A stretch of 64,000 nt of DNA from Sulfolobales archaeon (GCA_038867615.1 JAWBYA010000006.1:33562-97561), one strand, 5' to 3'; positions 4,254-63,203 are shown, numbered from the stretch's first letter. Numbers and translations: made by a program. Notes: generated by a model not told the origin, from the sequence alone.

Positions 4254-4509
4254 CCCAGGTTATATTATCACAAATCTTATTAAACCTTCCTATAGAGAAC
4301 CCTGCCTATCTGTCCCAAACATGGCTTAACGTTCTTTTACTATAGCTTATACCTAGTCATAGGTTTCTCTTTATCCTTGGATATGGAGAAAAGCAATGGA
4401 TATCAATAAATATTAAGGGATAAGTGGCGAGCATGGGTTATGGTGTGGTTTTAGTATAATAAGGCTTGTTGTTTTCAAAAATCTATTGTTTAGATAGGGT
4501 CGTGGGAAA

Positions 4510-5841
4510 CTACCTGCTTCTGATAAGAGCTATGGCTCCGGCTATGAGGCCTATGACTGCGAGGCCTAGTGCTGCGTAGATCATGTTAAGGCTTCCAGAG
4601 ATCTTTGAGTCGAGGCTGCTAACACTATTGCTGAGATCGCTGCTCAGGCTATTCACTCTACTCTCAAGACTAGATACTCTGTTGGAGACATCGTTGATCC
4701 TGGATCCCAGCTGGTTTGCCTGAGAGCTGAGCTGTCCTGACAGCTGTGAGATCTTTGAATCGAGATCCTTTATCATAGACATCGCGTTTGATAGGCTTGT
4801 CTCTAGATCCCTCATCCTTTTCTCCGTCGATGCAACATATTTAAGCTCACCCATATACCCGGTTGCCCAGAGAACCATGTTTCTAACAAACCTGGGGCCG
4901 TCGAGCATAACACCATAATACTGGGCAGTTATCCCTGGCTGGTAGTCACCAATAGGGCTTTCAGACGATACTATTATTGTCGCGTTCTTGATTACCTGCA
5001 CAGCAACCATCGGGAATGATCCTGTGTCGCCAGCGCTATAAGCCTGGCCCAGAAGACCCCTGGGCGGGGCTGTGTTCTCAACAATCTTACCGTTCGGCGA
5101 TGACCATACTATAACACTTATACCTTGCGGAACATTGTCAGGCTTTATAGCGCTCCACGAGCCTGTAGCTAGATCTCTATATGCAACAACCCCTGGACCG
5201 TGCATCAATATCTTCTCAGCCCCGAAGCCTAGGAAGGAGAGACCCTGAGGCGGTTTGATCAACGCGACAACCCTATATGGTGCCTGAGCGTTTGACACAG
5301 GATCCTCTACCGAAGCATAGTCCAGGGCTAGATTGCTCCCCAGGGCCTCGAGGATCTTATTAACAATCGCTATAGAGGTCTCTCCAGGGGGATAATCACT
5401 ATCTCCAGCGACCCATAAGGCTCTACCGCGAGTCTCTAGATAGCTCTTTATAGCCTGTATCTCCTCCGCTGTGAACTCCTTAGTGGGCTGGGGTATTATG
5501 AGGAGATCTGTTAGGAGTGATGTGAGTGTAACGGTCTTCCCATCGGGTGTTGTCATCTTATCAAGGGTTCCTATAAGGTATCCCGATATAAGGCTCCTAG
5601 CTACTGGGTCGAGCTTTGCTAGATCCTTCTCCGATGATAGAAGCACATAGACCTCGCCATCATATAGAGTTTTAACAAGTATATCGAGACCCTTCGGCGA
5701 CTCACCATGGGCTAGGTCTACAACAACTACATACCCAACAGCTGATCTAGCTGGCAGAGCTCCATAGATCGAGAATGCGGCAGCGGCTAGAGCAAGGATC
5801 AGGGTTAGCGATAAAGCTAACCTGAAACTGCTTCTCACCAC
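4510..5841 (-). CDS. Surface-anchored GldG/DUF4350-like protein with coiled-coil stalk
   Basis: Signal peptide, DLAHGE, LWVAGDSDY, a heptad coiled coil and a C-terminal TM helix. Confidence 0.6.
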   Translation of the reverse strand: MVRSSFRLALSLTLILALAAAAFSIYGALPARSAVGYVVVVDLAHGESPKGLDILVKTLYDGEVYVLLSSEKDLAKLDPVARSLISGYLIGTLDKMTTPDGKTVTLTSLLTDLLIIPQPTKEFTAEEIQAIKSYLETRGRALWVAGDSDYPPGETSIAIVNKILEALGSNLALDYASVEDPVSNAQAPYRVVALIKPPQGLSFLGFGAEKILMHGPGVVAYRDLATGSWSAIKPDNVPQGISVIVWSSPNGKIVENTAPPRGLLGQAYSAGDTGSFPMVAVQVIKNATIIVSSESPIGDYQPGITAQYYGVMLDGPRFVRNMVLWATGYMGELKYVASTEKRMRDLETSLSNAMSMIKDLDSKISQLSGQLSSQANQLGSRINDVSNRVSSLESRVNSLSSDLSNSVSSLDSKISGSLNMIYAALGLAVIGLIAGAIALIRSR

Positions 5842-17403: not shown

Positions 17404-18015
17404 CTAAGCCTTCTCCCCAGCCGGTGCTTTCGCCGGAGCTACCCTCTCGAGTAGGAGTTTTATTATATCGTTTCTAATACTATCCATGCTTGTCTTAACA
17501 TACCTCATATCAGCCTCTATAGCATCCATTCTCCTCTCTAAACCATCCATCCTGATCTTCATAGCCTCTGTGAGGGCATTCATAGCCCTCTCAACACTCT
17601 CTATCCGTGTGTTTAAGTTCCTATCCAAGCTCTCTATCCGTGCATTAAGATCTTTTTCAACACTTTCTATTCTCGCATTCAAGCTTTTCTCTAGGCTCTC
17701 TATTCTTGAGCTAAGGTTTCTCTCGATACTCTCTATCCTCATATTTAAACTCTTATCCATGCTATCCATTCTTCTCTCCATATCATCCATTCTCTTCTCC
17801 ACAGCATCTATTCTTTTCTCTATTATAGCGCTCATCTTTGTTTCAAGAGCCTCCATCCTAGCCTCAAGGGATCTCCTCATAGCATCCATAAATAAGAACC
17901 CTACCTCCCAGTCGCTCAGCTTCTCACCCTTCATAGCCTTATCAACGATCCTCTTACCATACTCGGCAAGAATGCTGGCAACTATATCAGCGCCTATAGA
18001 TGTAACATGTCCCAT
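17404..18015 (-). CDS. PaREP15-like coiled-coil protein
   Basis: ILAEYGKRIVDKAMKGEKLSDWEVGFL plus LNARIESVEKS-type 11-aa repeats. Start moved to ATG 18015 to match the paralogue. Confidence 0.8.
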   Translation of the reverse strand: MGHVTSIGADIVASILAEYGKRIVDKAMKGEKLSDWEVGFLFMDAMRRSLEARMEALETKMSAIIEKRIDAVEKRMDDMERRMDSMDKSLNMRIESIERNLSSRIESLEKSLNARIESVEKDLNARIESLDRNLNTRIESVERAMNALTEAMKIRMDGLERRMDAIEADMRYVKTSMDSIRNDIIKLLLERVAPAKAPAGEKA

Positions 18016-27543: not shown

Positions 27544-28696
27544 AGTATTTTAAGCCTCAGTCTATATGAGACTATAAACCAGTTGGATTAGGATGTTGTA
27601 TAGCAGGGGAAAGCGTTATGTGAAGGCATATTTCGCAATAAACATGGATGCTTAGGGGTTATAGGTTATTAAAGGTATATATAGCTAGAAGGTTAGATCG
27701 GCTATAACCAGTGATAGCTCTAATTAGGGGTTCTGCGGAGCTGTTTCTTACTTAGAGGTCTTTCCATTTTGTGGTTAGTGTGGCGGCTAGGATGAAGATT
27801 GCTGATAGGGTTGCTAGTATTATGAATGGTGTTAGTGCTGCTTCTGGTTTTTGGAGGATGAGGGTTTGTCTTAATCCTTCGCTGAAGTAGTAGAGGGGTA
27901 GTGTTTGGGCGATTTGCTGCATATATCCTGGCATGATTTCTAGGGGCCAGAAGGAGCCGGATAGGAACATCATTGGGAAGGCTATTGTGTTGCCTAGTGC
28001 TGTGGCAGCCTCTACATCTTTAACCAGTCCTCCTAGGAATACTCCCATGCTGCAGAAAGCAATAGAGCCTAGGAGGATTAGGAGTATTGCATATATGTCT
28101 GGGATTGCTTTGATCCCAAAGACAGCCCAGCCCAGGGCTATCATGACCGTCATTAGCATTAATGCTAGTAATGCCTGCACCAATATGTTACCCAGTATCC
28201 ATGTCGGCTTTGAGAGTGGTGTTGCAATCAGTCTCTTCAGAACACCAGTCCTCCTGTATTCCGAGATGTTGGATGTAACCCCTATCAACCCGTTGGTCAT
28301 GATGAAGGCAGCAATATAGCCTGGCAGATAGTAGTCAACAGCCTTAAGTCCTCGCACCTTGACAGCCTCCTGCTCGAGGGAGATGATAGGTGAGGCGCCT
28401 ATCATCCTCTCACCAAACTTAGCAGCTATGTTATCTATAACCCCCCTTATGATCGGGGCAGCCTGGTCGGCAGGGCTGGTTAGAAGGATAAGCCGTGCTG
28501 GTTTAGCTTCAAGGCTTATATTAGCCCTCTCTATCCAAGAGACCCCTTGCTCTAGATACTGGCGCTGAGACTCATTCATATACTGACCAAACCTCTCTAG
28601 AATAAGCTTCATCATACCGAAAGACACCTGGAACCTGACAGCCATATCCGCCTGGATCAGGCTCTTCTCAAAACCCTCAGGTATTATGAGAACACG

Positions 28697-29049
28697 CCAT
28701 AGCCAGCTGTTTCAGGTTTCATGATGGTTTATAGGGGTTGATATTAAACCCGAGTTCTGCAGTAATGGAACATTATATAAGCTCTGAAATATTTATGGAT
28801 ACCCGCCCAACAATGAGGGTAGAGATAGAGACCCAAGTGGGCGGGTTAAAGGTAAAGAGATCCAGGATGTGGGGGTTTCCCCACAGCAGTGAACCAGAGC
28901 AATGCAATGAAGGGGAGCTGTGGGCTGGGGTCACCCCGAACGGGTGGAGGCCAGTGATAAGGGCTCCAATGAAAGGAGCCCTGAGGCCTATGAAGCCAAG
29001 GGCTGAGCGGTTGGTATTTTTATATCAACCGCTATGAAGCCCGAACCCC
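28697..29049 (+). mobile_element. IS607-like non-autonomous element (MITE), copy A, 353 bp
   Basis: Ends CCATAGCCAGCTGTTTC... and ...GCTATGAAGCCCGAACCCC. Near-colinear with 62183-62528, with a CC core at both junctions. Confidence 0.88.
28801..29049 (+). ncRNA. Predicted structured RNA (omega-RNA/reRNA-like) inside MITE copy A
   Basis: TTATATAA at 28773-28780. Stems at 28801-09/28838-46, 28880-87/28917-24, 28961-67/28975-81 and 29007-13/29026-32, with equivalents in copy D. Confidence 0.5.
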
Positions 29050-29352
29050 TGCTCTGAAAACCCGCACCACGTGTCATATATTCTTGAGCATCGATCCCAG
29101 GATCTATCTCTTTTACATTGAACACACTCTGGTTAAGCAGATCTATGAACACCTTTGAGAGCGCCGTGGGCTCGCCATCTGGCTGGCGATCTAGATTCTG
29201 CACCTCCAGCGTGTAGGAAACCTGCTGCTCACCACCAAACACGGTTCCAAAGATGAGCAGAAGCATTGCTGGGAAGAGGAAGCTGAAGAAAACACCAGTC
29301 CTGCTCCTCAACCAGTTCTTGAGAAGCATCTCCACCAGAACCAACAACCCCT

Positions 29353-30294
29353 TCACGCCAGATCACCCGTCTCAGTCAACCTAGCACCCGTTAGCCTTAG
29401 AAAAGCTTCCTCCAACCCGCCATGGGTCATCTCAGCACCGCCAGTATAGCCTGACTCGTAGAGCTTTGAAAGAATCGAAGCCGCTTCCTGGTGCGATAGA
29501 CCACTAACTATAACCCTACCCTCAGGAGTCCTGATCCACTCATAACCCATCCTAGATAGTGTTTCCTCCACATTCTGGCTAGAACCCGATAGGATAAGGC
29601 GGACACCTCTGCTCTCTCTCCGTATTAATCCTTCTACACTATCGAGAGCAACGATCTTACCTTTAAGCATGATAGCTACCCTATCGCTAAGCCTCTCAGC
29701 CTCCTCTAGATAGTGTGTCGTGAGAACCACAGTCTTCCCATAACGCTTAAGAGACTGGATAAACCTCCAAGTCTCCCTCCTAGCATATACATCAAGCCCT
29801 GTTGTGGGCTCGTCCAGAAACACCAACTCAGGATCGCTGACAAGAGCCATGGCTATACCAACACGCCTCTTAAGGCCTCCAGAGAGCTTCATATAGAGCC
29901 TCTTACGATACTCCCACAACCCGAGCTCCTCGAGAAGCCTCTTGAGATCGGGTTTCACACCATATATCGCAGCGATAAGCCTCACATTCTCCTCAACAGT
30001 AAGCCTATCAATAGCATTGAACTCCTGCGGCATCACACCAATGAGGCGCTTGATCTTCCTAACCTGACCCTCATCCCTAACATCATAACCAAACACACGC
30101 ACCTCGCCCGAGGTAGCGGATCTGAGGCAAGCGATTATCTCCACAGTTGTTGTCTTCCCCGCACCATTATGGCCTAGGAGTGAAAAGACCTCCCCCTGCT
30201 TAACGCTGAAACTCACATTATCCACAGCCAACAGGTTTCCATATCTTTTTGTAAGCTGATGAACCTCGATAACATCTCTAGTCATTGTAACCAT
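29353..30294 (-). CDS. ABC-2 (drug exporter type) ATP-binding protein
   Basis: GHNGAGKTT, LSGG, FLDEPT and TTHY. Confidence 0.95.
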   Translation of the reverse strand: MVTMTRDVIEVHQLTKRYGNLLAVDNVSFSVKQGEVFSLLGHNGAGKTTTVEIIACLRSATSGEVRVFGYDVRDEGQVRKIKRLIGVMPQEFNAIDRLTVEENVRLIAAIYGVKPDLKRLLEELGLWEYRKRLYMKLSGGLKRRVGIAMALVSDPELVFLDEPTTGLDVYARRETWRFIQSLKRYGKTVVLTTHYLEEAERLSDRVAIMLKGKIVALDSVEGLIRRESRGVRLILSGSSQNVEETLSRMGYEWIRTPEGRVIVSGLSHQEAASILSKLYESGYTGGAEMTHGGLEEAFLRLTGARLTETGDLA

Positions 30295-40064: not shown

Positions 40065-40324
40065 GAGGTTCGGGCTTCATAGCAGTTGATTTTTACCAAC
40101 AGCTCTTCCCTTGACTTCCTCGACCTCCACTCATCCAGAGAAACCCCAACCCACAGCACCACATAGCACCGCACCGGCCCATCCACTCGGATCTCTATCT
40201 CTACTCTCATCGTTGGGCGGGCATCCCCATAGAATAATAGAGCCTATAAGCATGATGTTATTGCAGAACCGCGAGTTTAATACCAATCCATAACCATCCT
40301 CAAACCCGAAACAGCTGGCTACGG
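40065..40324 (-). mobile_element. IS607-like MITE, copy B, 260 bp, diverged and internally deleted
   Basis: Reverse complement starts CCGTAGCCAGCTGTTTCGGGTTTG and ends ATCAACTGCTATGAAGCCCGAACCTC. Confidence 0.85.
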
Positions 40325-40357
40325 CACGTTTTTAATCTCTCCCCGCGTGAGGATCTT

Positions 40358-45792: not shown

Positions 45793-45894
45793 AGTATCAC
45801 TACTACCACATGTTTCAAGAAGCAGGGATATTTAAAATAAGATAATGGTATTGACAGGGCTTTTCGAAACCATTTCTCGTAGCTCTTATCTATG

Positions 45895-46025
45895 CCGTAG
45901 CCAGCCGTTCCGGGTTTCATGATAATTTATAAGAACTGACATTAAACCCGTAGTTCTGCAATAATGGAACATAGTATAAGCCCTGCTATTCTATTAGGAA
46001 TCAATAGCTATGAAACCCAAACCCC
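45895..46025 (+). mobile_element. IS607-like MITE, copy C, 131 bp (ends only)
   Basis: CCGTAGCCAGCCGTTCCGGGTTTCATGA ... GCTATGAAACCCAAACCCC. The central structured part is missing, and the last C is the G of the glgP TAG stop. Confidence 0.85.
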
Positions 46026-47687: not shown

Positions 47688-49271
47688 TTGAGCTCTAAGA
47701 TCACATATGTAACACTAATAGCAGATGAAACGATACACCCAAAATACGAGGAAGCCCTAGCCCGTGTCGAGAAGGATCTTCTTGGTAAGAGATACCCCAT
47801 GTATATAGGTGGAAGGGAGATCTATAGCGAGAGAGGAGAGTTTGAGAAGAGAAGCCCCATAGATATAGATATAGTTGTGGGGAGGTTTCAAAAAGGATCC
47901 AGAGACCATGCTTTAGAGGCGATCAAGAACGCCCACGAGGCTTTTAAAGAGTGGGGCGAGAGCGATTGGAAGGAGAGAGTAAGGATCTTTAGAAAGATCG
48001 CTGACCTTCTGGAGAGAAGAGCATTCGACCTAGCCGCAGCAATAACCTATGAGGTCGGCAAGAACAGGCTTGAGGCCATAGCAGAGGTTTACGAGGCTAT
48101 AGATGCTATTAGATACTACACAGACCTCATGGAGAGGGAGAATGGGTATGTGAGGAGAATGATGCCAGGAGCACCTGGGGAGGAGACGTGGAGCATCCCT
48201 AGACCCTACGGGGTCTGGGTTGTTATATCTCCATTCAACTTCCCACTAATGCTTGCCAACGGGATGATGCTGGGAGCACTGCTAACAGGAAACACCGTTG
48301 TGTGGAAACCAACGAGCGAGGCCCCATTAACAGCAACCCTTCTACATAGCATCTATATAGACGGCGGCATCCCGCCAGGTGTTCTTAACCTCGTCACAGG
48401 ATCTGGGGAGGAGTTTGAGGATGTGTTTGTCTCCAACAAGCTTGTGGGCGGGATAGCCTTCACAGGGTCGAGGGATGTTGGTATGAGGCTCTACAGGAGA
48501 TTCACAACCGAGCAGCCCTACCCCAAGCCTATAGTGCTTGAGATGGGGAGTAAGAACCCAACGATAGTAACATCCAAGGCTGATCTGGACAAGGCTGTCG
48601 AGGGTACTGTGAGGGCCGCGTTTGGCTATGGAGGGCAGAAGTGCAGCGCGACATCGAGGCTCTATGTTGAGAAAAGCATCAAGGATGAGTTCGTGTCAAG
48701 GCTTGTTGAGAGGGTTAAGAGGATCGTTGTAGGCGATCCTAGAAAGAGAGAGGTCTTCCTAGGACCCGTTATAAATAGAAGGGCTCTTGAGAGCTTCAAG
48801 AGATATGTGGAAGATGCTGTAGCCTCTGGGGGTAGGATCCTGGTTGGAGGCAAGGTCCTCCAAGGAGGGATCTTCTCTAAAGGCTTCTATGTCGAGCCAA
48901 CGGTCATAGAAGGGGTTCCAGAGGATCACTATCTATGGAGGCAGGAGCTCTTCCTACCAATACTCCTGGTAAGCGAGTTCAGAACACTTGAAGAGGCTCT
49001 AGAGAAGGCTAACAATACCGAGTACGGGTTAACAGCAGGGATCTTTAGCGAGGATGAGAACGAGATCCAGTATTTCTTCAGCAAGATAGAGTTCGGCGTA
49101 ACCTATGCCAACAGGAGAGGAGGATCCACTACAGGAGCATGGCCAGGAGCCCAAACCTTTGTCGGTTGGAAAGCCAGTGGTGCAACTGGAAGGGGTGTTG
49201 GTGGTCCCTACTATCTGCTCAACTACTTCAGAGAACAGGCTAGAACAATAGTTAGAGAGACCAAGGGCTAG
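47688..49271 (+). CDS. Aldehyde dehydrogenase, P5C dehydrogenase-like
   Basis: SPFNFP, FTGS, LEMGSKN, GQKCSA and ELFLP. Start moved to TTG 47688 after a GGAGG-rich SD. Confidence 0.9.
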   Translation: MSSKITYVTLIADETIHPKYEEALARVEKDLLGKRYPMYIGGREIYSERGEFEKRSPIDIDIVVGRFQKGSRDHALEAIKNAHEAFKEWGESDWKERVRIFRKIADLLERRAFDLAAAITYEVGKNRLEAIAEVYEAIDAIRYYTDLMERENGYVRRMMPGAPGEETWSIPRPYGVWVVISPFNFPLMLANGMMLGALLTGNTVVWKPTSEAPLTATLLHSIYIDGGIPPGVLNLVTGSGEEFEDVFVSNKLVGGIAFTGSRDVGMRLYRRFTTEQPYPKPIVLEMGSKNPTIVTSKADLDKAVEGTVRAAFGYGGQKCSATSRLYVEKSIKDEFVSRLVERVKRIVVGDPRKREVFLGPVINRRALESFKRYVEDAVASGGRILVGGKVLQGGIFSKGFYVEPTVIEGVPEDHYLWRQELFLPILLVSEFRTLEEALEKANNTEYGLTAGIFSEDENEIQYFFSKIEFGVTYANRRGGSTTGAWPGAQTFVGWKASGATGRGVGGPYYLLNYFREQARTIVRETKG

Positions 49272-49296
49272 GGGTTAGGGCTTCACAGCTTTTGAT
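49271..49296 (-). mobile_element. Right-end remnant of the same MITE family (copy E)
   Basis: GGGGTTAGGGCTTCACAGCTTTTGAT matches the reverse complement of the copy D right end at 22/26 nt and starts on the G of the ALDH TAG stop. Confidence 0.6.
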
Positions 49297-61689: not shown

Positions 61690-62025
61690 CTATCGATCTT
61701 TAGCGGGGCTTATCTTTATAAGTTTTGCTCTTCTCTTATATATATCAAGCAGATCCGCGGTTATCACATGGATCTCGAACGGATCTTTTATTCCCTCCTT
61801 CCAAAGGCTTGCGAGAACCTCTCCCGGACTGATCCTGGTTACTACTAAAACATCTTCGCTTGAAAGCAGATGCCTATTTTCCGCAACACTGCCGAATAGA
61901 TAAACCTCTGCATTAGGATCTAGCCTTGTAACTATCTCAACGATCTTTCCCAAATATTTATCCAGATTACTGAATATCTCAGCCCTACGTTTAGCCTCTT
62001 TCACCAAAAATTCTTCCCACGACAT
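61690..62025 (-). CDS. MNT minimal nucleotidyltransferase, probably inactivated
   Basis: VYLFGSV and PFEIHV, but SSEDVLVV replaces the usual SDIDVLVV. Confidence 0.8.
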   Translation of the reverse strand: MSWEEFLVKEAKRRAEIFSNLDKYLGKIVEIVTRLDPNAEVYLFGSVAENRHLLSSEDVLVVTRISPGEVLASLWKEGIKDPFEIHVITADLLDIYKRRAKLIKISPAKDR

Positions 62026-62735
62026 TCCTGATCTCCTCCACAGTTTCTCTCAACCTTCAACCTCCTCACGAGAATAATCCCTACCAATATACCTAGACGT
62101 GATATAAGCATCTTCCAACGAGCCTAACTCCACAGCATATCTTAACAAAAGCTCTCTAACATCTTCTCGCCCAGAGAGATCGCCGTAGCCAGCTGTTTCG
62201 GATTTCATGATGGTTTATAAGGATTGATATTAAACCCGTAGTTCTGCAGTAATGAACATTATATAAGCTCTTATATTTCACTGGGATGACCGCCCAACAA
62301 TGAGGGTAAAAATAAAGACCCGAGGGGCGGGTTAAATAAAAACCAGGATGTGGGGGTTTCCCCACAGCAATGAACTAGAGCAAAGCTATGAAGGGGAGCT
62401 GTGGGTTGGGGTCACCCCGAATGGGTGGAGGCCAATGATAAGGGCTCCAATGAAAGGAGCCCTGAGGCCTATGAAACCAAGGGAAGAGCGGTTGATATAA
62501 AAATCAACTGCTATGAAGCCCGAACCCCTATCAGCTCTAGGAGCCTCCTCACGCTATGTGTCCTTGGATAATCTGCTCCTAGTTTGAGGAGACATGCTTT
62601 TAGGTATAGCTGGATAGACTGCTCAAGACTGAGGACTGCGAGATCATAGAATCCACGATCAATCTGAATAATAGAGGTCTCGAAAAACCTCCTAGACCGC
62701 TCAAGCAGATATTCTGCCTCACCCCGCTTAGTCAA
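61991..62735 (-). pseudogene. HEPN-domain gene split by a MITE and frameshifted
   Basis: LEQSIQLYLKA...YPRTH...LLELI joins GDLSG...LEDAYITSRY after removing 344 bp. A further 1-nt frameshift lies near 62056. Confidence 0.88.
62183..62528 (+). mobile_element. IS607-like MITE, copy D, 346 bp
   Basis: CCGTAGCCAGCTGTTTC ... GCTATGAAGCCCGAACCCC, colinear with copy A, with TTATATAA at 62259-62266. Confidence 0.9.
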
Positions 62736-63203
62736 AATACTACTCCTCAACTCCTTAAGTAGATTGTTACAAACACATTTAAGTGTGAACATAGAATCAC
62801 TCAGACCGGTGGCTTGAGTATCTATGCCGGTAAGTCCGCGTAGAGAGTTTAAGATAAAATAAGCAAGAATAGAGGACTAATCTTAGATATCTGTAACAAT
62901 TTATTGGGCTTACTTATCATCATCATTTATAAGACTGATTGATGATTAAACTCAAATGTAGTCTTTTAACAAAGCAACCAGCTTTTAACCATCTGGATCT
63001 ATCTATTTTAAAACGGTTGATAAGGGTAAATTGGTTCTAAGCAAAAGAGCTTAATGATCATAGCCTGTTATAGCCTATTCTTAAAAGCCCTGGGCAGTGA
63101 TGGGATTAATGCTCCAAACTGCCTGGAGAGTGTTCCCACAGAGATCTAGAGATCCCTGTAGGTGAGGATCTTTGGAGAAAAAACTATTTTGTTTTTACCC
63201 TAA

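Follow-up and report, generated by a model that had tools for sequence, protein, structure and literature searches.

What is the ~350-nt sequence that interrupts an ABC-2 permease gene in the window analyzed here (the whole 64,000-nt stretch of DNA from a Sulfolobales archaeon), and which type of transposase brought it there? A first-pass annotation had suggested an undescribed MITE family made up of non-autonomous IS607 derivatives, with copies at 28697-29049, 40065-40324 (minus), 45895-46025 and 62183-62528 and a remnant at 49271. All five were found with a profile HMM of the family or with a 19-mer from its right end:

28696..29049, plus strand: full-length mini-element of 354 nt including the left GCC (HMM positions 1-351, E 3.9e-116), antisense in the ABC-2 permease gene
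28697-29047: mobile unit plus one CC, 351 nt; a metagenome contig joins 28696 to 29048
28696..28698, plus strand: left junction GCC, in which G is target DNA and CC is the crossover dinucleotide, present again at 29048-29049
40065..40325, minus strand: deletion derivative of 261 nt without HMM positions 153-197 and 256-291, right end GAACCTC
45894..46025, plus strand: 132-nt derivative, in which the left 106 positions (45894-45999) are fused to the last ~26 nt, right tip at 46007-46025
49271..49289, minus strand: lone right-end remnant GCTGTGAAGCCCTAACCCC with 2 mismatches (0 expected by chance)
62182..62528, plus strand: full-length mini-element (HMM E 4.7e-120), antisense in the HEPN gene of a HEPN-nucleotidyltransferase pair

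When all five sites were compared, a common start, (G)CC-RTAGCCAGCTGTTTCGGGTTTCATGATGGTTTATAAGG, and a common end, GCTATGAAGCCCGAACCCC, were apparent. Positions 28862-29017 match 62343-62498 at 93%, a 73-nt start is common to 28696, 45894 and 62182, with inverted matches to 40117-40226, and the window contains 5 occurrences of the right-end 19-mer when up to 3 mismatches are allowed, compared to 0.00 expected from 100 shuffles. At the site orthologous to the 132-nt derivative in a congener (G003, locus L062), a full-length copy is present.

The sequences belong to an IS607-type family of protein-less mini-elements of ~350 nt, with ~70 copies in the 2.22 Mb genome (an assembly of 28 contigs that is 94% complete). 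Of 19 aligned full-length copies from the genome, 17 went into an HMM, two divergent rows being left out, and an nhmmer search of the genome with this HMM gave 131 HSPs that correspond to 66 left and 69 right junctions. Pairing of the junctions yielded 48 complete elements, of which 46 were mini-elements (205-364 nt) and two were TnpB-only elements (1,567 and 1,650 bp) with ends identical in type to those of the mini-elements. Nineteen of the 46 mini-elements have no deletion of at least 15 nt, and the remaining ones are recurrent deletion types, each found at several loci, such as those without HMM positions 198-284 or ~165-255 (4 copies each). The first ~60 and the last ~60 positions are kept in all deletion types. 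Copies are 67-91% alike and no pair exceeds 91%; thus, no recent burst is visible. The family is also abundant in five genomes of the same genus, in which the right-end 16-mer (up to 2 mismatches) occurs 59, 30, 58, 21 and 7 times, with only 0-2 occurrences per genome for the reversed pattern used as a control. A distant DNA search of a phage collection with the family gave no match.

Both full-length copies in the window lie in genes whose two parts can be recognized on either side:

27752..28695, minus strand: C-terminal part of the ABC-2 permease (from ORFs and the restored frame)
29050..29356, minus strand: N-terminal part of the ABC-2 permease (from ORFs and the restored frame)
62529..62792, minus strand: N-terminal fragment of the HEPN protein (…YPRTHSVRRLLELIG); ORF 62511-62792 runs into the element
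62050..62181, minus strand: C-terminal fragment of the HEPN protein (DLSGREDV…); ORF 62050-62208 runs into the element

The annotation had proposed that removal of the element together with one CC would restore both genes. Taking out 351 nt (28697-29047) indeed leaves one open permease frame of 419 residues that contains SRRVLIIPEGF, and residues 10-387 of this restored protein align with 11-360 of a congener's 399-aa ABC-2 permease homologue. The HEPN gene is likewise split by the fourth copy, with its fragments flanking 62182-62528 and the nucleotidyltransferase gene adjoining. The site of this copy is empty in G003, as the two BLAST pieces at locus L059 meet at C6:95745/96088, where they overlap by 2 nt; the window genome (G000) and G003 carry independent insertions ~60 nt apart within this one HEPN gene. 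Across the genome, an ORF of at least 120 aa is restored across the junction in only 6 of the 48 elements, and in 5 of these the element lies antisense.

Where does the element begin and end? Each copy has the structure flank-G-CC-[RTAGCC...GAACC]-CC-flank, and in the 66 left junctions of the genome the three positions are G in 61, C in 60 and C in 57. A search of the five congeners for the permease orthologue gave only paralogues with 24-32% identity and an 83% remnant of 42 aa, and the empty allele of this site was therefore taken from metagenome contigs. A 3,551-nt contig in the hot-spring metagenome runs X9 and X10 joins window position 28696 to 29048, skipping exactly 351 nt with CC..CC ends, with 2 ambiguous letters and a single mismatch in 497 + 553 = 1,050 flank bases. 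X9 and X10 are possibly duplicate filings of a single data set, and the contig was therefore counted once. The empty allele reads ACACG-CC-TGCT and the filled one ACACG-CC-[ATAGCC...GAACC]-CC-TGCT. Since the empty site holds a single CC, nothing is duplicated beyond the 2-bp core. The CC core and the lack of any longer duplication, both of which had been proposed from the filled copies, are thereby confirmed. A conservative exchange at a CC core and a 2-bp duplication that always involves CC look the same on sequence alone.

The same boundary was found at other loci. We mapped the flanks of 64 mini-element loci from the congeners G002 and G003 onto the window genome, which provided 17 candidate empty sites, 14 of which gave alignments clear enough for counting. 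In all 14 orthologous pairs, deleting the element and 2 nt from the filled site yields the empty site, with C at position -2 in 14 and G at position -3 in 13. A single CC, as in the metagenome contig, is kept in 7 of the 14 empty sites. In the other seven, the second core base is not C (T in 5 and A in 2), while the filled alleles of those pairs have CC at both junctions all the same; the same orthologous pairs differ at 9-17% of other positions. The sample for this position is limited in size, and attention was drawn to the position only in hindsight. In a three-genome check made at seven of these sites, two empty alleles agreed on a non-C base at three sites (GCT/GCT, GCA/GCA and GCA/GCA), two empty alleles differed at three (GCT vs ACC, GCT vs GCC and ACC vs GCC), and both other genomes were filled at one.

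A non-C second core base in half of the empty sites is not predicted by a strict exchange between identical cores and is unexplained. It is possible that the transposase can act despite a mismatched second core base, and a study on IS607-type IStrons reports non-matching products from donors with altered cores (bioRxiv 10.1101/2023.11.20.567912). It is also possible that some of the empty alleles are survivors of excision that carry a mutated target-adjacent motif (TAM), the motif for cleavage by TnpB. In the 10 best pairs, the right flank, which would be the guide target, was not more diverged than the left (9% and 7% at +1-10 and +11-20, compared to 10% and 9%), and this weakens the latter reading.

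The many junctions also allowed the target motif to be defined. In the window the left flanks are cgCC, tgCC, tgCC and cgCC and a T follows the right end in 4 of 5 cases, just as annotated. The YGCC|T consensus that had been drawn from these five copies does not hold genome-wide, where the motif is approximately AAGCC followed by A or T. The base two before GCC is A in 35 of 66 left junctions, the base just before GCC is A in 33, T in 19, C in 12 and G in 2, and the base after the right end is T in 26, G in 17, A in 16 and C in 10 of 69. This logo replicates in 35 congener loci that are absent from the window genome (A in 21/35, A in 20/35, GCC, then T in 14 and A in 12 of 35). Position -3 differs between the two ends, being G in 61 of 66 left junctions vs C in 64 of 69 right ends, where the sequence reads ACCCC. 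A parallel difference is known from the clostridial IS607 IStron, for which the same study gives TGGG as target and TAM and TCGG as right end, with -3 separating self from non-self (bioRxiv 10.1101/2023.11.20.567912).

The next question is which larger element the mini-elements come from. Three longer elements with the same ends serve as parents in the comparison:

C1:11134-12700: TnpB-only parent in the window genome with an intact TnpB of 457 aa; both ends as in the mini-elements
C1:50094-51743: TnpB-only parent in the window genome with a frameshifted TnpB; both ends as in the mini-elements
L010:2653-4610: full-length tnpA(serine)-tnpB element of 1,958 bp in a related archaeon, in the order left end, tnpA, tnpB, right end

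The mini-element can be read as a series of segments collinear with the TnpB-only parent:

28699..28747, plus strand: left end, common to the TnpB-only and tnpA-tnpB parents, with motif A (TTTCAGGTTTCAT), a TTTATA stretch and motif B (GGTTGATAT); consensus 1-49 has 82-90% identity to the parent left end
28772..28781, plus strand: TATA-box-like stretch ATTATATAAG, a putative promoter, collinear with a box 28 nt upstream of the tnpB ATG (L002:437-446); consensus 75-87 matches the parent ACATTATATAAG stretch holding ATTATATAAG at 13/13 nt, a collinear match that is weak alone (E 0.06)
28803..28846, plus strand: hairpin CCCGCCCA...TGGGCGGG, seen on folding, from the zinc-ribbon coding part of tnpB; consensus 109-155 (47 nt) has 79% identity to parent 1249-1295 (zinc-ribbon coding)
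28862..29049, plus strand: last ~190 nt, ending GAACCCC, the presumed ωRNA scaffold, homologous to the tnpB 3' end plus the right end; consensus 166-351 has 91% identity to parent 1378-1567 (the last 190 nt)

The two ends are built differently. Motif A lies 14 nt from the left tip vs 4 nt from the right tip, the spacing between motifs A and B is 13 nt in the left end vs 1 nt in the right end, and a perfect hairpin, GCGGTTGATAT...ATATCAACCGC, is found ~20 nt from the right tip, while the left end has no matching hairpin. As the annotation had noted, the only inverted repeat is the offset subterminal TTCGGGYTTCAT and none is terminal; no complementarity exists between the tips GCCRTAGCC and GAACCCC. 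What remains of the designation MITE is that the elements are small, non-coding, present in many copies and derived by internal deletion (46 paired elements, collinear with the parent). Terminal inverted repeats and a true target duplication are both absent, which places the family outside the classical definition of a MITE.

In other genomes, close relatives of this TnpB are encoded behind IS607-type transposases, and L010 is the cleanest case. The full-length element L010 is inserted in a hexapeptide-repeat gene, with the junctions aacGCC|CAAACGCAACTGTTTCGAGTTTCAT... and ...ATGAAACCCGAACCCC|T. In its TnpA, an HTH_17/MerR domain (residues 1-50) precedes a Resolvase domain (residues 56-188), and the score against the NCBIfam model for IS607 family transposases (NF033518; cut-off 110) is 224 bits. 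The TnpB of L010 is 71% identical to that of the window genome. The left ends of the full-length, TnpB-only and mini forms align over ~50 nt, and the right end is common to L010 and the TnpB-only elements L002, L003, L007 and L008, with the tnpB 3' end overlapping the right end. All longer elements with these ends encode either TnpB alone or a serine TnpA together with TnpB, and never a DDE enzyme.

The nearest relative that has a name is ISSis5, from plasmid pYN01 of Sulfolobus islandicus Y.N.15.51 (NC_012624.1), which encodes a TnpA 61% identical to that of L010, followed by TnpB. Its left junction, ...GCC|GTCGTCAACAGTTTC, with GT after GCC and AACAGTTTC near the tip, and its right end, ATGAAGCCCAAACCCC|, are of the same junction type as in the window family, and its 3' region contains a GTGCGGGTTTCCCCAC-type stretch as in the window family. 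ISSis5 differs from the window family in that it is autonomous, at ~1.9 kb, whereas the mini-elements, of 205-364 nt, have neither gene. The hosts differ as well, with ISSis5 in S. islandicus and the relatives of the window genome designated, for example, Desulfurococcaceae or Sulfolobales archaeon.

Our combined findings of a full element with the same ends and a serine TnpA, ISSis5-type junctions, empty alleles with a CC core and no Y1 transposase in the genome support the IS607-family origin that had been suggested for the copies. At the sequence level, the family passes every test for IS607 descent. It is thus very likely that the copies are protein-less deletion derivatives of an ISSis5-like insertion sequence of the IS607 family, which carried a serine recombinase tnpA and a tnpB. 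Literature searches for an IS607 MITE, a non-autonomous IS607 element, an archaeal TnpB miniature or an IS607 element of Desulfurococcaceae or Desulfurococcales brought up no such family; calling it undescribed rests on this absence from the searches, which is not proof.

The annotation had suggested a search of the genome for a complete tnpA(serine)-tnpB parent. Such a parent exists in the related archaeon (L010), whereas the window genome holds TnpB-only elements and no TnpA. No IS607 transposase over the cut-off was found in its 94%-complete assembly, and a tblastn search of it with cognate TnpAs returned only a frameshifted remnant (C7:65739-65976). In the sole resolvase-domain protein of the genome (on C23), the catalytic domain comes first and the match to the IS607 model reaches 23.9 bits; with this score and its Hin-like domain order, this protein is not of the IS607 type. 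All five congeners do have IS607 transposases over the cut-off, which are 35-51% identical to the cognate TnpA. We rejected these as the cognate enzyme due to this low identity and to the absence of a matching left end beside them in the 11 loci scanned; one weak left-end match (L158) belongs to a neighboring TnpB-only element. Pieces of cognate-like TnpA (64-72%) were found only at contig ends in G005. The present copies in this assembly are therefore either immobile now or dependent on a transposase outside the assembly.

We turn to what the mini-elements may still encode. The ωRNA of TnpB elements is encoded at the 3' end of tnpB together with the right end. Location at the 3' end of the element is consistent with bioRxiv 10.1101/2023.11.20.567912 and with Meers et al. 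By homology to this part of the parents, the last ~190 nt of the mini-element are probably the ωRNA region. The region folds with -108.5 kcal/mol (z -5.1) and the opposite strand has z -5.8, so that folding energy does not discriminate between strands. RNAalifold with default settings gave almost no structure on 90 sequences, and a relaxed setting was used to obtain the consensus. Its 54 pairs were evaluated in 68 copies and parents aligned with MAFFT. In this alignment 87.9% of cells were paired, compared to 28-49% in slid controls. Furthermore, 26 of the 54 pairs had changed on both sides, compared to a mean of 16.9 after shuffling, and none of 500 shuffles reached this value, although such covariation figures tend to be inflated by kinship among the sequences and, in the parents, the region is partly coding. 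No Rfam family matched the mini-element (E up to 1). Deletions of at least 15 nt inside the presumed ωRNA are present in 23 of the 46 mini-elements, and these are recurrent types found at several loci. Since the deleted types have spread, the ωRNA scaffold is not needed for spread. As an alternative product of the region we considered a conserved peptide in the 50-codon frame of the TnpB tail. This was rejected: the frame is open in 51 of 104 copies, and its changes alter amino acids and track wobble pairs of the RNA.

How would such elements move? We suggest that a cognate serine transposase, acting in trans, would bind the subterminal TTCGGGYTTCAT and GRTTGATAT motifs, which are unequally spaced in the two ends, would excise the element as a circle with one CC, as deduced from characterized IS607 elements, and would reinsert the circle at A-A-G-CC-A/T sites. 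About 60 nt per end would be sufficient, whereby internally deleted forms could spread to several loci. Mobilization in trans by the cognate TnpA, as the annotation had proposed, is inferred here by analogy to known systems. For IS607, the literature describes a GG core, no duplication and motifs at unequal spacing (PMC6188088), and for the IStron it describes TGGG as target and TAM, TCGG as right end, minimal ends of 60 bp and a mini-IS moved in trans (bioRxiv 10.1101/2023.11.20.567912). With less confidence, we propose that the transcript of a full-length copy would end in a guide taken from the right flank and would load a TnpB encoded elsewhere in the genome, and that this complex would cut emptied donor sites that carry the AAGCC motif. 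With C rather than G at position -3, the right end of the element itself, ACCCC, departs from the target and would hence be spared from cleavage. In this way, the full-length form would probably also serve as a cassette of promoter and ωRNA. A further-reaching reading is that of a mobile cassette of which each copy expresses a guide from its own right flank, borrows the single intact TnpB in trans and polices its donor site; we regard this as somewhat unlikely.

Are the copies instead immobile fossils, with their presence and absence stemming from old events or from events in other strains that still carry the transposase, and with an RNA part that has no present function? This would fit the missing cognate TnpA in the assembly, the deletions in the RNA region of half of the copies, and the TnpB tail frame, which is open in only 51 of 104 copies, close to neutral decay by a rough estimate, with changes that alter amino acids. 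It would also fit the 67-91% likeness among copies. However, cut-and-paste movement leaves no near-identical paralogues, and the divergence of copies consequently does not date their insertion. Against this reading, populations with flanks one base apart in 1,050 differ in whether the ABC-permease site is filled, the HEPN gene was hit independently in G000 and G003, an intact cognate TnpB is kept and RNA pairing is maintained above the controls. We consider the fossil state a distinct possibility, if still a doubtful one.

Other routes of insertion fare far worse than the IS607 descent set out above. One is that the family consists of IS200/IS605-type PATEs, moved as single-stranded DNA by a Y1 (HUH) TnpA and inserted 3' of a short target motif. 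PATEs too would show no terminal inverted repeat and no long duplication, the perfect hairpin GCGGTTGATAT...ATATCAACCGC ~20 nt from the right tip would suit them, and the parents are TnpB elements, as with the ωRNA-carrying PATEs reported by Meers et al. Yet a Y1_Tnp search of the window genome found no match, while the same search, as a control, matched in 6 of 14 genomes; moreover, no counterpart of the hairpin is seen at the left end, the full-length relatives that share these ends encode a serine recombinase, and the same CC at both junctions, present once in the empty site, fits the pattern of IS607. Such an origin is very improbable. An equally slight chance attaches to a classical MITE mobilized by a DDE transposase whose 2-bp target duplication would always be CC. 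The CC on both sides and its single occurrence in the empty allele resemble such a duplication when only sequences are compared, but terminal inverted repeats are absent, longer elements with these ends never encode a DDE enzyme, and a true duplication would copy the target base, whereas 7 of the 14 empty sites have a base other than C in the second position even though both junctions are CC. Finally, splicing of the element from RNA as an intron, leaving the interrupted genes functional, could be read from the exact restoration of reading frames, from the ability of the two element ends to pair with each other and from the existence of IS607 IStrons with group I introns (bioRxiv 10.1101/2023.11.20.567912), but it has next to no chance of being right given that no intron or other Rfam family matched, that the element is antisense in 5 of the 6 cases in which an ORF of at least 120 aa is restored (including both window cases), that empty alleles exist at the DNA level and that the left part does not resemble a group I core, for which it is also too short.

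The descent from IS607 places the family among several known systems. According to published work, IS607, IS1535 and CboIStron share with it the lack of terminal inverted repeats and of target duplication, a fixed dinucleotide at both junctions and unequal motif spacing, as well as ends of ~60 bp that suffice, gene-less mini-IS moved in trans, a target motif that equals the TnpB TAM and a right end that differs at -3. The window family differs from these three in having CC on the sense strand as the core, not GG, and AAGCC rather than (G)GG or TGGG; it also has no group I intron, a far higher natural copy number and empty sites half of which are without the second core base. PATEs of the IS200/IS605 group, such as those of Geobacillus stearothermophilus, are similarly protein-less with their ends kept and, according to Meers et al., often carry an ωRNA that needs TnpB from elsewhere. 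Unlike the window family, which stems from a serine-recombinase element, PATEs are moved by Y1 enzymes as single strands and have hairpins at both ends. Another comparison is with SMN1 of Sulfolobus, whose original paper reportedly calls it a 'miniature non-inverted-repeat' element, without inverted repeats. In PMC3718332, SMN1 is presented as a ~320-bp element of crenarchaea, which relies on the transposase of a larger insertion sequence (ISC1733). If ISC1733 is of the IS607 type, SMN1 would be a direct precedent; it is likened to the window family here by description only. By analogy, the window family would work like the PATEs of IS605 and like the laboratory mini-IS of the IStron study.

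The family can thus be seen as a natural, high-copy case of what IS607 had displayed only with laboratory mini-elements: as ends of ~60 bp are enough, protein-less derivatives can colonize a genome. The 66 left and 69 right junctions, dozens more in congeners and more than 12 pairs of filled and empty sites form a data set on target choice by serine transposases, including an unexpected looseness at the second core base. The thermostable TnpB-ωRNA pair that the family predicts would use an AAGCC motif, in contrast to the T-rich ones of IS605 TnpBs, and may be of interest for genome editing. For the archaeon and its relatives, the family accounts for broken genes, including the ABC-2 permease and the HEPN toxin-like gene, and for many contig breaks in hot-spring metagenome bins. 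If the full-length mini-elements are indeed ωRNA cassettes, an RNA-guided drive would be retaining dozens of protein-less elements in this genome, with a hyperthermophilic TnpB that uses a G+C-rich AAGCC TAM, and the T or A with which the TAM ends in 7 of 14 empty sites would be either a scar of escape from cleavage or a sign that, for archaeal serine transposases, a match at the first core base is enough.

In 7 of 14 orthologous filled and empty sites, the second C of the GCC-embedded core, at which the main family of IS607-derived, protein-less mini-elements inserts, corresponded to T or A in the empty allele, despite which the filled alleles of these seven carried CC at both junctions. At one site, two empty genomes differed in the change found inside GCC, one reading GCT and the other ACC. 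Examples among the 14 sites, by position in G000 (the genome holding the window), are:
C3:92516, C1:611030, C1:33910, C5:87312, C1:387875 and C2:150760

Separate insertions have also struck the same gene in two genomes, the HEPN gene of the following pair:
Window 61690-62792, HEPN-nucleotidyltransferase gene pair, compared with locus L059 of the congener G003
The G000 gene carries a mini-element at window 62182, where the corresponding G003 site is empty, and the G003 gene has its own mini-element about 60 nt from the G000 insertion site.

Two mini-elements in the window contain open reading frames:
Window 28738-29037, 99 codons
Window 62348-62500, 50 codons
Both are vestiges of the C-terminal tail of TnpB (MWGFPHS...), whose frame was open in 51 of 104 copies, and no sign of protein-level constraint on it was seen in the 104 copies checked.

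A repeat search of the window also returned a tandem array with a period of 33 nt (2225-2829; 13 overlapping 209-nt copies, 60-81% alike), which could be a coding 11-residue repeat, and a pair of 78-nt inverted repeats (2180-2257 and 17899-17976) that are 77% complementary and 15.6 kb apart.

The full-length IS607 element of locus L010, a tnpA-tnpB relative with the same ends as the mini-elements, splits a hexapeptide-repeat (acetyltransferase-like) gene:
L010:2247-2663 and 4470-4835, opposite strand to the element, the two parts of the gene

The sole resolvase-domain gene of G000 encodes a 203-aa recombinase of the Hin/invertase type, with the contig ending about 150 bp away; an IS607-type tnpA is present as a remnant:
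C23:6595-7206 (L001:1480-2091), Hin/invertase-type recombinase gene, catalytic domain first and HTH last
C7:65739-65976, frameshifted tnpA remnant, 39-44% identical to the L010 TnpA
A main-family mini-element (C7:66950-67287) lies about 1 kb from this remnant, which also has a copy of a second family beside it. The region looks like a small mobile-element graveyard.

This second family, of about 340 nt and unrelated to the main one, gave 47 HSPs in a BLAST search of the G000 genome with L069:256-630. Examples, all outside the window, are:
C6:15223-15571
C7:67360-67734, the copy beside the C7 tnpA remnant
C1:10695-11037
At one end, the opening ~65 nt match sequence immediately 5' of the tnpB genes in loci L004 and L005, which belong to a different TnpB family from that of the main family; at the other, the final ~190 nt match these genes at their 3' end plus sequence beyond. 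The two mini-element families share one design, "left end plus tnpB 3' end".
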